Below the pieces are notes generated by a model. That model was given only the letters and a program-made list of their open reading frames with translations, had not been told where the DNA came from and did no database searches. The translations under genes and the position numbers were made by a program. Below, one piece after another: positions 2,584 through 12,720 of a stretch of 12,896 nucleotides of DNA; within the stretch, counting starts at the first letter, position 1, and every line of letters begins with the position of its first letter. The stretch is from Candidatus Bathyarchaeota archaeon (lineage in GTDB: Archaea > Thermoproteota > Bathyarchaeia > Bathyarchaeales > Bathycorpusculaceae), in NCBI GenBank assembly GCA_963739305.1, contig CAVTZU010000019.1:1-12896 (forward strand), given 5' to 3'.

Positions 2584-3418
2584 TTATTTCGGCTTGACTC
2601 CGGAAACCTTCATACTGACCACTGAATTTCCGAATTGTTTCAGCTTTGCCACTGGAATTTCTGATGTTTTGGCTATTGCTTTCGCGGTTGGATCATTGGC
2701 CATGTCTTCGATAGGGAAAGTAGTTTTCTTCGTTGACTTTGACTTTTTGAAAACCAGCATCTTTTATCATCTGTAGATATTTGTCCTTCATTTCGGCGCC
2801 TGAGAGGCATCCGATGTATGCTTGAACGTTTTTCTTTATGATTTCTGGAAGCTTTTTGAGCAGAACTATATCCGAAACCATAAGCCTTCCGTTTGGTTTC
2901 AAGACTCTGAAGGCTTCTTCAAAAACTCTTTTTTTGTCTGGTGAGAGGTTGATTACGCAGTTTGAGATGATAACGTCAACCATGCCATTTGCTACTGGCA
3001 GGTTTTCGATTTCTCCAAGCCTGAATTCGACGTTTTTGTACTTGCTTTTCCTGGCGTTTTCTCTGGCTTTGTCGATCATTTCCGGGGTCATGTCTACGCC
3101 GATTACCTTGCCACTTTGGCCCACCCTGTTGGCGGCGAGGAAACAGTCAAAACCGCCTCCTGACCCGAGGTCTAGAACAGTTTCACCTTTTTTCAGAGAC
3201 GCCAATGCAACTGGGTTGCCGCACCCCAGGCCGAGGTTTGCGCCTTCTGGTACTGAGCTGATTTCTTCTTCAGAATAGCCTATTCTCTTGCTAATCTCTT
3301 CGCTCATGCTTGGAGTATTGGAGCTGCAGGATGTTGGTGCGCCGCAACAGGATTTCTCGTTCTTGGCGACTTTCGCGTAGCCTTCTCGAACGATTTTTCT
3401 TATCTTTTCTTTTTTCAT
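2584..3418 (-). CDS. arsM: Arsenite S-adenosylmethionine methyltransferase, with an apparent 1-nt insertion near 2714-2727
   Basis: ArsM motifs SCCG, NLGLGCGNP, VLDLGSGGGFDC, GVDMTPEM, SNCVINL, IGCLSGA. The ORF track ends at 2693, but removing one base continues the protein as FPIEDMANDPTAKAIAKTSEIPVAKLKQFGNSVVSMKVSGVKPK* to TAA at 2586-2584 (277 aa), which resembles the usual ArsM C-terminus. Confidence 0.93.
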
Positions 3419-4588: not shown

Positions 4589-4651
4589 AATGCACTCTGC
4601 ACATTTTGTCGAGCACAAAATCTTAAAGTGTCTGTCTGTTCTATGCGAAGC

Positions 4652-7096
4652 ATGGAAAGTTCAGACGCGGCGTCGAACGGGCTCTCTCAAATTGAGGCTG
4701 AACAGAGGCTCAAGAAGTATGGGCTAAACCGTTTTGCTGAACCTCAGAGAATGAGTTTTCTGGCAATCGCCCGAGAAGAAATTACTGAACCTATGATCCT
4801 GCTTCTTCTGTTCGTTGGTGTGGTCTACACGGTCCTTGGGACTTTGCAGGATGCCCTCACGATCTTCGCGGTCATTTTCGTTCTTGTTTTTGTCGAAATA
4901 TGGAATGAGTACCGCGCCAAGAAGGCTATAACCGCTCTTTCTGAGCTGGCTGCTCCGAAGACAAGGGTCATGCGAGACGGTCGGATAGTGGAGGTTGAAG
5001 CTGAGAAGATCGTTCCGGGTGACACTTTGGTATTCACACAGGGAACCCGAGTTGCAGCGGACTGTAAGCTTAGCGTTTCATTCAGCATTCAGGTCGACGA
5101 ATCTGTTCTGACGGGAGAATCTCTTCCGAAGGAAAAGAAGGTTGGAGACGACGTTTTCGCGGGAACATTAACTGTATCAGGTGAAGGAGAAGGGCAAGTC
5201 TACGCTACAGGCAAGAGCACCAGGTTCGGGAAGATTTCTGCTCTCGCTCAGAAGATCAAGCCTCCAAGAACGCCTTTACAGATGGCGATGAAGTCGCTGT
5301 CAAAGACTCTTGCTTGGGTCGCGATCTTCTTCAGCATCATCATACCCATTCTTGGTTTCCTGCGTCTAGGGTCTCCTGACATCAAAATACTGATACTAAC
5401 GGGGCTAGCGCTTGCTTTTGCCGCTATTCCTGAGGAACTTCCTATCATAATTACGATGATTTTGGGAATAGGATCCTACAGGCTTTCTCAGAGAGGCTTT
5501 CTAGTAAAGAAGCTCAAAGCCACCGAAACCCTCGGCGACGCCACCGTAATCGTCACCGACAAAACGGGAACGATCACGGAGAATAAGATGCAAGTCGCCC
5601 AGCTTTATCCACAGGACGAAGAGACCCGCATCCTTCGTGCAGCCGTTGCTGCGTTGACCGAGATGTCGATGTCATCCACTGACAGAGTGATTCTGGAGAA
5701 AGCCCGCGAATTAGGAGTCAAATTGGATTCGGGCGCGATTGTTCGTCAACGCGGTTTTGAAAACAACAGACGAACGAAAGCTGTCATTCGCACGAAGGAT
5801 GATAACGTCTGGGTTTCGGTCATCGGAGCTCCTGAAGAAATCCTGAGGGAATCCAAGAGCAACACTGCTTTTAATGAAGAGCTCGCCAACGAGACCGCAA
5901 AAGGGAGAAGAGTCATCGCCGTAGCAGAAAGATCACTCCAAACCAAAGATGCTAACCTGCCTTTCGCAGAGCTAGAGTCGGGCTTCGATTTCATCGGGTT
6001 GATTTCTATCGAAGACCCGCCGCGTCAAGGCGTGGCAGAAACGATTGAAGCGATTCAACGAGCCGGAATAAGAACCATAATGGTGACCGGCGACCATCCC
6101 CTTACAGCGGCTTACATTGCAGAGAAAGTCGGCATTCCTTCGAAAAAAGTGATGACAGGAGAGGAATTGGACACGCTTTCTGATGGGCAACTGCAGGAAA
6201 CCGTAAAAGAGGTCTCGGTTTTTGCAAGGACTACTCCTGAGCACAAGTACCGACTCGTAAACGCGTTGCATGCTAACAATGAAGTTGTCGCGGTCACTGG
6301 CGACGGTGTCAATGATGTTCTGGCCCTCAAGGCAGCGGATGTTGGGATCGCGATGGGAGTGAAAGGCACAGACGCCGCAAGGGAAGCAGCAGACGTTGTG
6401 CTGACTGATGACAATTTCATCAGCATAGGGCAAGCAGTCTTCGACGGCCGCAGGTTTTTCGACAACCTCAGAAAAGGCCTGAAGTACTATTTGTCCGTCA
6501 AAGTGGCGCTGATATCGATTTTCCTGTTGCCAATTGCGCTGGGCGTGCCCCTGCCTTTTGCTCCGATACAGATAATCGTCTTGGAACTTTTCATGGATCT
6601 TGCCGCCTCAGCAGGGTTTGTCTCTGAGCCAGCCGAAGAAACCATTTATAGTCGAACGCCACGGAACCCTAAAGCGAAGTTTCCTGATCAACGAATGATA
6701 ATTGAAATCGCGGTTTCTGGTGCGAGCCTCTTTGCCGCGGTGATGCTTTCCTACTTCTACGCGACTTGGCAGAATCTCTCGGTTACCGAGACTCAGACTT
6801 TCGCTTTTTCTGCTTGGATGATGGGCCACATAGTCCTTGCCTTCGTTTCACGCTCAGAAAACGAGCCCCTCTATGCTTTGGGCGCTTTGTCTAACAAAGT
6901 AATGGATCTGTGGGCAATTCTAGCTTTCTCCTTCCTCCTCGTAGCGGTCAACGTGCCTTCGGTGGGTTTTCAGCTCAGACTGTCGACGCTCTCGTTTCCC
7001 CAGATTGGCTTGATCCTAGGTTTTGCTCTTCTGACCATCGCTTGGCGCGAGGTCGCGAAACTCTTCTTGTTCAGAAGGAATTCGAAATTCGCATAA
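4652..7096 (+). CDS. Cation-translocating P-type ATPase (type II-like, substrate unknown)
   Basis: GLSQIEAEQRLKKYGLN, TGES, IPEELP, DKTGTIT, TGDH, FARTTPEHK, TGDGVND. Start uncertain (4628/4643/4652); 4652 lies about 25 nt after the TATA-like TCTTAAAG at 4621-4628. Confidence 0.95.
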   Translation: MESSDAASNGLSQIEAEQRLKKYGLNRFAEPQRMSFLAIAREEITEPMILLLLFVGVVYTVLGTLQDALTIFAVIFVLVFVEIWNEYRAKKAITALSELAAPKTRVMRDGRIVEVEAEKIVPGDTLVFTQGTRVAADCKLSVSFSIQVDESVLTGESLPKEKKVGDDVFAGTLTVSGEGEGQVYATGKSTRFGKISALAQKIKPPRTPLQMAMKSLSKTLAWVAIFFSIIIPILGFLRLGSPDIKILILTGLALAFAAIPEELPIIITMILGIGSYRLSQRGFLVKKLKATETLGDATVIVTDKTGTITENKMQVAQLYPQDEETRILRAAVAALTEMSMSSTDRVILEKARELGVKLDSGAIVRQRGFENNRRTKAVIRTKDDNVWVSVIGAPEEILRESKSNTAFNEELANETAKGRRVIAVAERSLQTKDANLPFAELESGFDFIGLISIEDPPRQGVAETIEAIQRAGIRTIMVTGDHPLTAAYIAEKVGIPSKKVMTGEELDTLSDGQLQETVKEVSVFARTTPEHKYRLVNALHANNEVVAVTGDGVNDVLALKAADVGIAMGVKGTDAAREAADVVLTDDNFISIGQAVFDGRRFFDNLRKGLKYYLSVKVALISIFLLPIALGVPLPFAPIQIIVLELFMDLAASAGFVSEPAEETIYSRTPRNPKAKFPDQRMIIEIAVSGASLFAAVMLSYFYATWQNLSVTETQTFAFSAWMMGHIVLAFVSRSENEPLYALGALSNKVMDLWAILAFSFLLVAVNVPSVGFQLRLSTLSFPQIGLILGFALLTIAWREVAKLFLFRRNSKFA

Positions 7097-7295: not shown

Positions 7296-8750
7296 TCACA
7301 TAAAGAATCTGTAGCTGGAAGGTGGAATTCCTCCACTTGAAACCATTTCCGCCATCACTGCTCCAACCTTTCTTGACACTCCAATCGTAACCGGCATTCT
7401 TGTGTAGAATGTTGAGGAATTCCAGTCAAGTTTCGTCAGACCCATGATATCTCTACAAATACTTTCAACCGACGTATCTAGTCGTTGACAAATCAAATGT
7501 AGCGGACGAGGGACCCCTGGTCCTGGGTACGTTGCAAGCGCGGGTACATATCCAGAAGTGAATAGCATTGCTTCATTTGTATCCACTACCGCTGTTCCAC
7601 GAACAACAGGGTAATCATACTTCGAGTGATATGCCCTGAAACTTGGCCATTCCATCAGGTGCACGATGTCTAGAACGTCAATGGTTTCGCAGGCGTTTTT
7701 ACATCCTTGTGTTTCTTCGTCAGAGAATCTAGTTGATTTGTGAACTACTACTCTCCGTGGCATCCTGTTTCTCTGCCTAACGAACAGCTCAATCGAATCT
7801 CCTACTATTTTCTGCATCTGTTGGGAATTCAGACGGACGTTCCGTTTCTCCTTTTCTTCATTCCAATCAAAAGCCTCACCCCTGATGACTTGGCTTTCCC
7901 CTGTCCTCATGTAAACTTGAGCGATACTTGCTCTCATCGTTCTGCCCGACTGTCCAATTTCATTATAGAAAGAAATGCCGATATAGCAAGTTTCATCGTC
8001 TATTTCCGCTAATTTCCATGGAGTGCCTGTGGCCTTGTAATATATTGCGACCGAGAAGTTCCAACCGATGAGTGCAGGACTCTGCTTCTGTGTTGAAAAT
8101 GCCAGCGTCTTGGGTGTTATCATCTGCGTAGTGAAGCCTCTCAAAGCTGCTTGAGCCTTGAGATGGTTGTGGAAGTCGAAGAGTTCTGCATTTTCGCTGT
8201 CTGGATCGCCAAATTCTCTGTGTTGGTACACAATTTTGTCGGTTTTTTGAAATGGATCTTTGCACAGACTGAGAAGGTCATCGTCTATTGGCAGCAAAAT
8301 CGTTTGTGGCCTTGGATGGGCCTCAGTTAGGTCATCGAATTTGTCGCAGTATTTTTTCACGACCAGAACAATTCTTTCTTTTCGCTTCTTTGTTTCTAAG
8401 CTTCGTATGAATGATCTCTCAATCCGCGGACTGCAATCGCTATCCACCAATATCTCAAATCTCAGAGGGCCTTTCATTGACAAGCCTGGGAAATCGATTC
8501 CTTTGTATTCTGTGCCAGGGCGTTCTTCAGCAGCTATTCTGTATTTCAGTCTGTCAAGCCATACCTTCGTTTTGTCCATGCTCCGGTCAGTTCCAATGAT
8601 TCCAGCTCGGATCGTTATTCTTGGTTGTTCGCTACTGCTCATTCCACCATGTGGACCATAGTTCAACAGGCCCACTTGGGGGTCTGGGCACTTGCCGTTT
8701 CCACCGAAGAATAATTCAGGTTCGTCAATCCGCAGAACTCTGAATTTCAT
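7296..8750 (-). CDS. Short prokaryotic Argonaute (MID-PIWI, catalytically inactive)
   Basis: 484 aa from ATG 8750 (ATGA overlap with the upstream stop). IDEPELFFG..DPQVGLLNYGP start, MID pocket FHNHLKA / TQM / YYKA.G.PW, PIWI CYIGISFY, VVVHKSTRF, VVRGT, YPG..VPRPL, IMGLTKLDWNS, PVTI, C-terminal YRFFM. No N/PAZ domains; catalytic Asp positions are substituted (GIS, HKST). Confidence 0.95.
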   Translation of the reverse strand: MKFRVLRIDEPELFFGGNGKCPDPQVGLLNYGPHGGMSSSEQPRITIRAGIIGTDRSMDKTKVWLDRLKYRIAAEERPGTEYKGIDFPGLSMKGPLRFEILVDSDCSPRIERSFIRSLETKKRKERIVLVVKKYCDKFDDLTEAHPRPQTILLPIDDDLLSLCKDPFQKTDKIVYQHREFGDPDSENAELFDFHNHLKAQAALRGFTTQMITPKTLAFSTQKQSPALIGWNFSVAIYYKATGTPWKLAEIDDETCYIGISFYNEIGQSGRTMRASIAQVYMRTGESQVIRGEAFDWNEEKEKRNVRLNSQQMQKIVGDSIELFVRQRNRMPRRVVVHKSTRFSDEETQGCKNACETIDVLDIVHLMEWPSFRAYHSKYDYPVVRGTAVVDTNEAMLFTSGYVPALATYPGPGVPRPLHLICQRLDTSVESICRDIMGLTKLDWNSSTFYTRMPVTIGVSRKVGAVMAEMVSSGGIPPSSYRFFM

Positions 8751-10189
8751 CCAGTGCCCCCAAAATCCCAAAGTCTGGTTTGATCTCTCTCAATCACTTT
8801 CGGACTCCAGTCCACTATTTCTTTGATGAAATCGCCAAATTGGAAACTATCAAACCATTTTTCTGGTTCTATGGTATATTTTTTCGATTCAAACAAGACG
8901 TATTTCCACAGTCTCATTAGCCCGAGTCTGGTCTTGCATCTATCGAATTTAGGATTTCGGAACTTTGCATCGAGTTTTTTGCGCGTTTCACCGTCTATTG
9001 GCGTCTCGCCGTCAAAAGTGTAATACTTTCTCGGTGTGATTTCAATGTAAGAGTTCATCCAGTAAGTAGGAGTCTCAAGCTCTATTGCTCTATGAAAGAA
9101 GAAATTCGTCTCTCCCTTCCTGCCGAATCGTGAATCCTCTTTGTGGACTAACCTCCTCACGACCCACCTTTGCTTTCTCTTTGGTCCCATCACAATTCTC
9201 TTAGTCTTCGACTTATCTAGCATAGGGAAGTAAAAGATGTCTGCTTTAACGTCACGGTATACGCCTCTGTTCCATATGATTCTCCTCAAATGTACATTCA
9301 CTAATTCGGAACACAAAGGAGGGTTTTCCAACTGAAGATCCTTAGTCTTCGAGGTAGTTTCAGCCCCGGTTACGTACTCAGTCAACGGATTCTCATGGTC
9401 AAACTTGACGAATGACATCATAATGTTATTCTTTGTTCTCCAAATGAATGGTGGAATCAACTTTCCTTTGAGGCCCTCATAAATCTCCATTTTTGTCTTT
9501 GCATTAGATCGGCACATGTAGTAAAGTGTTGGAAGGCCTAATGGAAGTATGCTCATTACCAGAGTGCTCTTTTTCATCGTTGGTGCTCTTCTCTTCTCAA
9601 CGATACTCAGAAGTTTTTGTGCCATTTTGGAAATCGAGGCAGCAGACTTTGACTCTTTTTCGCCGATGGCAGTATCTAGGCGTTGACTATTCGCGACAGT
9701 GACAGTGCTTTCAGAAAAGAACCTTATGCTGTCGCCAGCCTCCTCGTTGGACAAGGGGATATCTTTTCCCTCAATGCATTGCGCGTTGTACCAATTACAC
9801 CATTTGTCGATTGCAATCCTTTGGTTGTTTTCGGAAAATATCGCCTCCCACTCATCGGGTTTTTTCACGGCTTGGGCAAACAAGTGGAAATTAAACCTGT
9901 CATCTGGCTTCTTGCCACGCCAGAGTCTGAAATATCCGACTAGTTCCTTGGCAAACTTGCAGGAATGTAATGACAAGTTCTCTGCCTTGACTTCAACCAA
10001 GAACCTCTTGCCAGGAGCCATGGTTGGATTGCAAAAAAGCATATCTTCAAAAGTTCCTTCGATGAACGAGTCGGTGATCTGGGAATAGCCAAACGATTCC
10101 AAGTAAGCGCGGACACTTGTCTTATATGCTTCAGACTTGGCTGTCAGGGATTCTCTCCTGCCATACAAAAAATGAATTGTCGTGCTCAC
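8747..10189 (-). CDS. Short-pAgo partner: N-terminal PD-(D/E)xK-type nuclease fused to an APAZ-like domain
   Basis: 480 aa, GTG start next to AGGTGA. VRAYLESFGY..ED49MLF..FLVE66VK68 resembles Mrr/restriction-endonuclease catalytic motifs. The C-terminal half (STLVMSILPL.LP, FFHRAIEL, IEITPRKYYTFDGETP, W..VL) resembles APAZ domains. Translationally coupled to the pAgo gene. Confidence 0.8.
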   Translation of the reverse strand: MSTTIHFLYGRRESLTAKSEAYKTSVRAYLESFGYSQITDSFIEGTFEDMLFCNPTMAPGKRFLVEVKAENLSLHSCKFAKELVGYFRLWRGKKPDDRFNFHLFAQAVKKPDEWEAIFSENNQRIAIDKWCNWYNAQCIEGKDIPLSNEEAGDSIRFFSESTVTVANSQRLDTAIGEKESKSAASISKMAQKLLSIVEKRRAPTMKKSTLVMSILPLGLPTLYYMCRSNAKTKMEIYEGLKGKLIPPFIWRTKNNIMMSFVKFDHENPLTEYVTGAETTSKTKDLQLENPPLCSELVNVHLRRIIWNRGVYRDVKADIFYFPMLDKSKTKRIVMGPKRKQRWVVRRLVHKEDSRFGRKGETNFFFHRAIELETPTYWMNSYIEITPRKYYTFDGETPIDGETRKKLDAKFRNPKFDRCKTRLGLMRLWKYVLFESKKYTIEPEKWFDSFQFGDFIKEIVDWSPKVIERDQTRLWDFGGTG

Positions 10190-10306
10190 TCACCTTTGAA
10201 TCTCTTATTGGTCATGCAAATAAGATTGGGCGAGCTCTGCATTGTTGGTTCGCCCGTCATACGGAATCTTTTCAAATGCATCCATAGAACACCGCAATGT
10301 TTTGAG

Positions 10307-10341
10307 ATATAAACTTGCGTACTCACAATAAGTGAGTGCGC
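10307..10341 (-). promoter_or_regulatory. Putative promoter of the nuclease-APAZ/pAgo operon with adjacent palindrome
   Basis: Minus-strand TTTATAT at 10313-10307; immediately upstream is the inverted repeat GCGTACTCAC-AATAA-GTGAGTGCGC (10317-10341, 9/10 arms). Confidence 0.55.
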
Positions 10342-10509
10342 GCTAGGCACGCTATTTCTCTCTGAATTCCCTGACACTTTTTTCGGCTATTTCTCCAAAA
10401 TGATCTACCATTTTGTCTAGATTTGTCAAAGTCTTTTGTATCAGATTCTTTTCTGTGAAGGAAAAAAGCAGTTCCTTTTCAAGGAACGTATTGGCACCTG
10501 TCAAGTTTT

Positions 10510-12642: not shown

Positions 12643-12720
12643 TGGTGCTCCGGCCGGGATTCGGACCCGGGTCCGCGACTCGAGAGGCCGCTATACTTGA
12701 CCGGACTATACTACCGGAGC
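12643..12720 (-). tRNA. tRNA-Glu (CTC), intronless, CCA encoded
   Basis: GCTCCGG acceptor pairs with CCGGAGC-A-CCA; anticodon arm GCGGC-CT-CTC-GA-GTCGC; T arm CCGGG-TCCGAAT-CCCGG; AT-rich upstream element at about 12747-12760. Confidence 0.95.

Follow-up and report, generated by a model that had tools for sequence, protein, structure and literature searches.

Contig CAVTZU010000019.1 of a Candidatus Bathyarchaeota archaeon (GenBank assembly GCA_963739305.1), 12,896 nucleotides long and referred to here in its full length as the window, carries a two-gene short-Argonaute operon. The key player in this operon is a pair of proteins: an Argonaute built of MID and PIWI domains, and a partner that joins an N-terminal PD-(D/E)xK nuclease domain to an APAZ domain. 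We conclude that the module is a divergent, intact new example of a short prokaryotic Argonaute (pAgo) type that has been catalogued and is experimentally uncharacterized. By analogy with its characterized relatives, it is probably a two-gene immune system that acts as a guide-dependent, oligomerization-activated collateral DNase, much as SPARDA does.

Throughout, the SPARDA systems used for comparison are the short pAgos with DREN-APAZ partners of Xanthobacter, Novosphingopyxis, Enhydrobacter and Thermocrispum. Like them, the window pairs a seemingly inactive short Argonaute with a PD-(D/E)xK-APAZ protein. The likeness stops at the nuclease domain itself, which belongs to another family. Below we describe the two proteins, the family to which the nuclease domain belongs, and the weight of the evidence for and against collateral cutting.

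A short Argonaute tightly coupled to its partner

Both genes are uninterrupted open reading frames (ORFs) of the length typical of their families. They are coupled through four letters, ATGA, in which the TGA stop codon of the partner (8749..8747) and the ATG start codon of the Argonaute (8750..8748) overlap. The ORF listing also offers a TTG at 8771 as the start of a longer Argonaute ORF; we prefer the ATG because the alignments with homologues and with solved short pAgos begin at residues 2-8. The partner gene precedes the Argonaute gene in the same order at four other loci, L002, L003, L004 and L005, which comprise all three of the reference-genome loci and one haloarchaeal plasmid. In one Dehalococcoidales pair the NCBI locus tags are adjacent in number (…09505, …09500). 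The G+C content of the gene pair, 0.43-0.46, is slightly lower than the 0.49-0.51 of the upstream transporter gene. Taken together, the ORFs, the conserved residues described below and the recurring gene order place the pair far beyond chance ORFs.

Could the genes be decaying remnants with no current function? A precedent exists at the bathyarchaeal locus L004, where the Argonaute gene carries an in-frame TGA (L004:8495-8497) through which tblastn reads in one frame at 60% identity; nonsense mutation, misassembly and recoding are all conceivable causes. For the window we regard decay as very improbable, given that neither gene is interrupted or of unusual length and that all of the invariant residues are present.

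The Argonaute matches the PADLOC model pAgo_I over positions 3-455 of 455 (E 2.1e-121). Pfam offers nothing for it at E up to 0.01, and a search of NCBIfam with both proteins returns solely an Argonaute match far below cut-off, the partner being unmatched. We placed the protein among pAgos by ranked similarity to PADLOC models and solved sequences. At E up to 0.001 the window Argonaute matches ten distinct solved sequences, headed by the Argonaute of SPARHA, a short pAgo with an HNH-APAZ partner (9om4_B, E 4.7e-53), with three SPARDA Argonautes next (E 2.5e-49 to 4.3e-45). Of the other six, five are Argonautes whose entries are for SPARTA or Piwi domains (2.5e-43 to 2.3e-39); the last is the Piwi-domain protein 8in8_C (3.3e-33). 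The alignments run nearly end to end, from query residues 2-8 to 477-483, against SPARHA and SPARDA short pAgos of 471-485 amino acids. The protein is therefore a MID-PIWI-only Argonaute, without an N or PAZ domain. It is present in a single copy in the genome and has 225 homologues. Among these, a drop in identity from 56% to 48% at homologues P0167-P0200 marks a second subclade, with named members in Methanofastidiosia, Methanoperedens and ANME-1 (44-48% identity to the window Argonaute).

How would such a protein hold its guide? According to the portion of Ryazansky 2018 available to us, the 5'-phosphate of the guide is bound by a four-residue pocket, Y/R-K-Q-K, and the HK type of pocket is that of short pAgos. 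The corresponding residues of the window Argonaute are H194, K198, Q209 and K239. Across 31 homologues H194, K198 and K239 never vary, and Q209 is kept in at least 90%. K198, Q209 and K239 align with identical residues of the SPARDA and SPARHA Argonautes; H194 faces an arginine, the pocket there being R-K-Q-K. Judged by these alignments, the Argonaute retains the predicted pocket for a 5'-phosphorylated guide. The comparison with SPARDA extends to bases further along the guide. In XauAgo, a SPARDA Argonaute, Q222 and N230 are described, in the part of the report at hand, as reading the second guide base and N179 as reading a first adenine. The first two align with conserved Q223 and N231 of the window Argonaute, a point of likeness, whereas N179 faces D192, which together with the histidine that opens the pocket is a point of difference.

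Profile alignment (hhalign) with Thermus thermophilus Argonaute (TtAgo, sequence from plasmid pTT27; probability 80%, E 1.5e-5) sets V305, S339 and R460 opposite E512, D546 and D660, which are catalytic tetrad positions of TtAgo. The window protein is non-acidic at all three. It is accordingly described here as predicted to lack the DEDX tetrad and to be unable to cut.

An earlier note on this DNA had given the coordinates, strand and lengths of the two genes and their ATGA coupling exactly as the ORF listing and the sequence itself have them. Its claim of two intact genes of a short-pAgo operon agrees with the ORFs, the pAgo_I match and the conserved gene order, and its description of a MID-PIWI-only Argonaute with an H-K-Q-K pocket agrees with the short-pAgo alignments and the conservation among 31 homologues. 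The absence of a catalytic tetrad, also claimed there, holds at the three positions mapped onto TtAgo.

A PD-(D/E)xK nuclease fused to APAZ

The partner has 78 homologues and no Pfam match at E up to 0.01. Its best PADLOC model is Aga_REase_Archaea (PDLC02417; E 1.8e-26, 91.6 bits), which covers residues 30-432 and with them both the nuclease and the APAZ parts; the C-terminal half is also matched by three REase-APAZ models and one SIR2-APAZ model. The sequence alone finds no match among solved structures. A profile of 35 homologues finds a single solved protein, the SPARDA DREN-APAZ chain 9jsb_D (E 1.3e-4), at positions 209-394 only.

An AlphaFold (AF2) model of the partner has a mean predicted local distance difference test score (pLDDT) of 82, with the APAZ part mostly above 90. 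When the whole model is searched with Foldseek, SPARDA DREN-APAZ chains come out on top (E 1e-15), with SPARTA and SPARSA partners next. APAZ-only chains align with template-modelling (TM) scores of 0.70-0.76 and root-mean-square deviations (rmsd) of 3.3-5.4, among them 9qbl_A (TM 0.72, rmsd 3.3), 9vx1_E (TM 0.76) and SPARHA 9om4_A (TM 0.70). These structural matches and the profile match to DREN-APAZ confirm the APAZ fold. The APAZ domain is joined to the nuclease domain by one long helix, which takes up residues 168-201 of the model. At the C-terminus, the motif RLWDF (window 8753-8770) is conserved in the close clade and modelled with low confidence.

Residues 1-178, folded alone from an alignment of 18 sequences, give a model with a pLDDT of 81.8. 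It consists of a helix, three strands, a helix and a strand, the alpha-beta-beta-beta-alpha-beta core of the PD-(D/E)xK superfamily. D49 stands where the second strand begins, just before strand E50-54, and E66-x-K68 lies on the third (E58-72). All three residues are invariant in 35 close homologues. In a family alignment of 104 sequences, made up of 103 full-length representatives (400-542 amino acids) and the window partner, D49 and E66 are each retained in 103 and K68 in all 104. This near-invariance argues for a catalytically active enzyme. Outside the triad, E13 is found in 94 of the 104 sequences, the other 10 being gaps, so that every sequence covering the position has it; R12 is found in 85 and E20 in 80. 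R12 and E13 (window 10153-10156 region) fall in a tail that the model cannot place (pLDDT below 50). Either this pair or the C-terminal RLWDF could be a regulatory or interface element.

To which nucleases is the domain related? Foldseek returns weak matches (best E 0.008) led entirely by PD-(D/E)xK nucleases: LmuA, Cap4 and EndoMS. In a second structural look at the 50 best entries, the neighbours are almost all of the PD-(D/E)xK fold, and LmuA, DUF4297 and Cap4 nucleases are nearest. No SPARDA entry appears among those 50 best matches, an absence from a list that is no proof that the folds differ. By sequence, the domain profile finds rows at chance level among solved structures (E 1.2). No Pfam family fits the domain. 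In a scan of 18 N-terminal domains at E up to 10, neither DUF4365 nor DUF4297 is among the 18 families listed, and Mrr_cat matches one of the 18 domains at E 0.13, the window's own being unmatched.

Two specific identities were considered and rejected. When the partner is aligned by hhalign with a DUF4365-APAZ protein, the APAZ part alone aligns (residues 209-432, probability 86%). Against a SMEK-APAZ protein the probability is 15.5%, again for APAZ alone. Because DUF4365 finds no match and the alignment is confined to APAZ, the N-terminal domain is not the SPARDA effector. It differs from that of SPARHA as well. The SPARHA Argonaute is the closest solved relative by sequence, and its partner shares the APAZ fold, but its effector is an HNH nuclease in the text of the SPARHA paper that we consulted. 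As for LmuA of Lamassu, HerA-DUF4297 and Cap4 of CBASS, no sequence similarity to them is detectable (Pfam at E up to 10; PADLOC), and their controlling partners are SMC-like, HerA or SAVED proteins, where the window type would have an Argonaute.

The family is nevertheless a catalogued one. The N-terminal domain alone matches Aga_REase_Archaea, a PADLOC model of 2023, at E 5.4e-16, as do 18 of 18 members. A profile search with the domain against 1.84 billion representatives of clusters at 50% identity yields 168 matches at E up to 0.001. We looked at 148 of these (P0201-P0348): 103 are the full-length proteins used in the alignment above and the rest are shorter pieces, and no domain context other than APAZ fusion occurs among the 148. 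Aga_REase_Archaea matches 98 of the 103 full-length representatives at E up to 1e-15. Scores run continuously from 57 to 413 bits, with the window's in the divergent majority.

The closest described counterparts are haloarchaeal plasmid systems (Aga_REase_Archaea PDLC02417 with pAgo_I PDLC02376). They have the same gene order, overlapping genes and the same architecture, and the best PADLOC models of both proteins are identical to those of the window. By hhalign the haloarchaeal partner aligns with the window partner over residues 3-434 at a probability of 98.8%, with the D and the E-x-K in register. In contrast, the partners are 22% identical and the Argonautes about 33%, and the haloarchaeal partner scores 552.9 bits (E 1.6e-166) against Aga_REase_Archaea where the window scores 91.6. 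The hosts differ too: of those named in the window's clade, most are uncultured archaea that are not halophiles (Bathyarchaeia, Hodarchaeota), and one is a Dehalococcoidales bacterium.

The literature touches on this family under several names. In the accessible part of Ryazansky 2018, APAZ group III comprises 18 archaeal proteins with no recognized extra domain; we infer that this is the family of the window's partner. 'REase' in the TmuRE-Ago paper and 'Mrr-like' in the SPARHA paper stand among the APAZ-fused nucleases listed in the passages seen.

Of its claims about the partner, the earlier note was right in proposing an APAZ fold and an N-terminal PD-(D/E)xK fold with a conserved D49...E66-x-K68. 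Close identity to a characterized DREN- or Mrr-APAZ protein, which it had named as something that would remove the novelty, was not found in the solved-structure searches and the DUF4365-APAZ alignment. Its suggestion that the domain may be an undescribed effector family has to be given up in view of the 18 matching domains and the full-length haloarchaeal relatives.

Table 1. Positions of the two genes and of their domains and predicted functional residues in the window.
Feature	Coordinates	Strand	Basis
Partner gene, nuclease-APAZ, 480 aa, GTG start	8747..10189 (10189..8747)	minus	ORF and translation
N-terminal PD-(D/E)xK nuclease domain, aa 1-178	9656..10189	minus	fold model, conserved D...ExK
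Predicted catalytic codons (span 9986..10045)	D49 10045..10043; E66 9994..9992; K68 9988..9986	minus	conservation and model
APAZ (N-L1-L2-like) domain, about aa 205-460	8810..9577	minus	profile, Foldseek, hhalign
ATGA overlap, partner stop and Argonaute start	8747..8750	minus	read directly from sequence
Short (MID-PIWI) Argonaute gene, 484 aa, ATG start	7296..8750 (8750..7296)	minus	ORF and translation
Predicted MID 5'-phosphate pocket codons (span 8034..8171)	H194 8171..8169; K198 8159..8157; Q209 8126..8124; K239 8036..8034	minus	conservation in 31 homologues

Proposed collateral cutting and its alternatives

What might this module do? From the behavior of the characterized relatives SPARDA, SPARHA, SPARTA and TmuRE-Ago we infer the following sequence of events. 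The APAZ domain of the partner would supply the missing N-terminal half of the Argonaute, with the long helix reaching out to the nuclease domain, and the two proteins would form a heterodimer. The heterodimer would load short 5'-phosphorylated guides, probably RNA. Pairing of the guide with invader DNA would then drive oligomerization, bringing nuclease domains together for indiscriminate DNA cutting without sequence preference. Such cutting would kill or arrest the cell, or remove the plasmid, and so serve in defence. The precedents are the filament assembly and nuclease tetramers described in the portion of the SPARDA preprint at our disposal and the non-specific DNA cutting described in that of the TmuRE-Ago paper. 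The catalytic triad, the guide pocket, the tight coupling of the genes and a patchy, mobile-looking distribution fit this proposal.

The earlier note had likewise spoken of a SPARDA-like system in an archaeon. The short-pAgo operon, the APAZ domain, the PD-(D/E)xK fold and the archaeal host all stand; the nuclease, not being of SPARDA's DREN type, is the part that does not.

Several points weigh against the proposal. The geometry of SPARDA activation may not be transferable to the window's nuclease, because this domain shows no sequence homology with either DREN or SMEK. The first tetrad aspartate lies outside the stretch aligned with TtAgo, leaving three of four positions mapped; matched by eye, it corresponds to the invariant G258-x-S260 of the window Argonaute. 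The literature that could be searched, on Mrr-, REase- and nuclease-APAZ and on APAZ together with haloarchaea or Cap4, yielded no experiment on any member of the archaeal nuclease-APAZ type. Finally, the window holds no integrase, no notable flanking direct repeats and no other defence genes, and the neighbours of the pair are transporters and regulators.

These housekeeping-like neighbours bear on a first alternative, in which the pair is not primarily immune and serves guide production, DNA repair, chromosome upkeep or RNA cutting, or in which the nuclease domain binds DNA without cutting. No RNA run is listed as containing the stretch, which is present in four DNA runs of one study, possibly its source, and in small share in two others. 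The near-invariance of the D-ExK triad over 104 sequences speaks against it, and so does the distribution of the genes. Only 3 of 41 related genomes have a match, the window's own included; within the same genus it is one of 10 other genomes, at 55% identity, and one further related genome matches weakly (E 1e-3). Named relatives of the gene pair come from Bathyarchaeia (two loci), Hodarchaeota and Dehalococcoidales. Tyrosine recombinase (Phage_integrase) genes adjoin the pair at two of three related loci (L002:8962-9777 and L003:10-1185), which hints at carriage on integrated elements, and relatives are found on 112 plasmid records. The characterized relatives are all defence systems in the literature as far as it was accessible. 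We consider a non-immune role improbable.

In a second alternative the heterodimer is a programmable, target-specific nuclease: the PD-(D/E)xK domain would cut the guide-paired strand, or DNA nearby, in place of the lost PIWI activity. The single long helix that tethers the nuclease to APAZ would suit such a role. On the other side, LmuA and Cap4, named as structural neighbours by the titles of the matched entries, are described as effectors working in oligomeric form. There were early proposals of this kind for nuclease-APAZ partners, and RNA-guided target cutting is reported for SMEK-APAZ (Koopal 2022 and the TmuRE-Ago paper, both in the parts available); the nuclease-APAZ and HNH-APAZ systems characterized in the literature consulted nonetheless cut collaterally once activated. 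Target-specific cutting is thus an unlikely account of the module, if somewhat less so than a non-immune role.

A bolder reading, less likely than not, is also conceivable. The effector might be a nuclease of the Cap4/LmuA type captured by an Argonaute, and the large, mostly archaeal family would then stand alongside DREN and HNH as a third class, by mechanism, of short-pAgo systems with a nuclease. The nuclease would have an activation architecture of its own and might assemble as an LmuA-like tetramer rather than the homing-endonuclease-like tetramer of DREN, with the R12-E13 tail or the RLWDF motif as a lock released by target binding. If true, Argonaute immunity would be connected with the pool from which CBASS and Lamassu draw their effectors.

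One other archaeal system invites comparison. SiAgo-Aga1-Aga2 of Sulfolobus islandicus is, like the module proposed here, a short-type Argonaute defence system of an archaeon, and a characterized one; unlike the window's, it has three components and a membrane effector, as given in the part of the source to which we had access. SiAgo is not among the 10 solved sequences that match the window Argonaute at E up to 0.001.

The window alone adds a divergent intact example and no new principle. The family is sizeable, with its 168 clusters at 50% identity spread over haloarchaeal plasmids, uncultured Bathyarchaeia, Asgard and other archaea. Its study could show whether the principle of filaments and collateral DNase activity seen in SPARDA and SPARHA also applies to another nuclease fold and to archaea, and which guides an H-type MID pocket chooses; perhaps it could also provide a new programmable DNA sensor.

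Host and neighbourhood

The window is an entire contig of a genome bin of 36 contigs and 2.3 Mb that is 97.1% complete. The genome contains a full-length small-subunit ribosomal RNA that fits the archaeal model best, and the window encodes regulators of the TrmB and HTH_10 types, which are typical of archaea; the host is archaeal, as the earlier note had held. The locus in the other genome of the same genus shows figures identical to those of the bathyarchaeal locus L004, which makes a bathyarchaeon the probable host. A methanogen or ANME host was considered and rejected, since no alpha subunit of methyl-coenzyme M reductase (MCR) was found in this genome.

A different short Argonaute, with 30% identity to the window's, is encoded by a genome of the same family at locus L012 (G016:C34:50031-53441). 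The gene next to it shows a weak match to the window partner in the APAZ part (E 1e-3). The lineage would then have a second type of short pAgo.

Upstream of the partner, a 63-amino-acid ORF (window 10186-10377, minus strand) shares the letters GTGA with it, the TGA stop of the ORF and the GTG start of the partner overlapping there. Pfam gives no match for this ORF, its sequence appears arbitrary, and it is probably not a gene. The sequence TTTATATC at window 10306-10313 (minus strand), 117 nucleotides upstream of the partner start, resembles the consensus of the archaeal TATA box. Within the 460 nucleotides that separate the operon from the divergent HTH_10 regulator gene lies a hairpin followed by a T-run (window 10462-10487, minus strand). 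Promoter-like and terminator-like sites are not above shuffled controls in number, in a scan that models bacterial signals only and was applied to an archaeal host.

A gene for tRNA-Glu (CTC) lies near the contig end (window 12643-12720, minus strand), at a distance of 2.4 kb from the operon; a search around the operon for a repeat of the tRNA gene's 3' end came back empty. Beyond the Argonaute gene, at 2693-3418 (minus strand) and 4628-7096, are a methyltransferase with a cysteine-rich N-terminus, possibly of the arsenite methyltransferase type, a TrmB regulator and a P-type cation ATPase. The neighbourhood looks like one of metal handling rather than a defence island.

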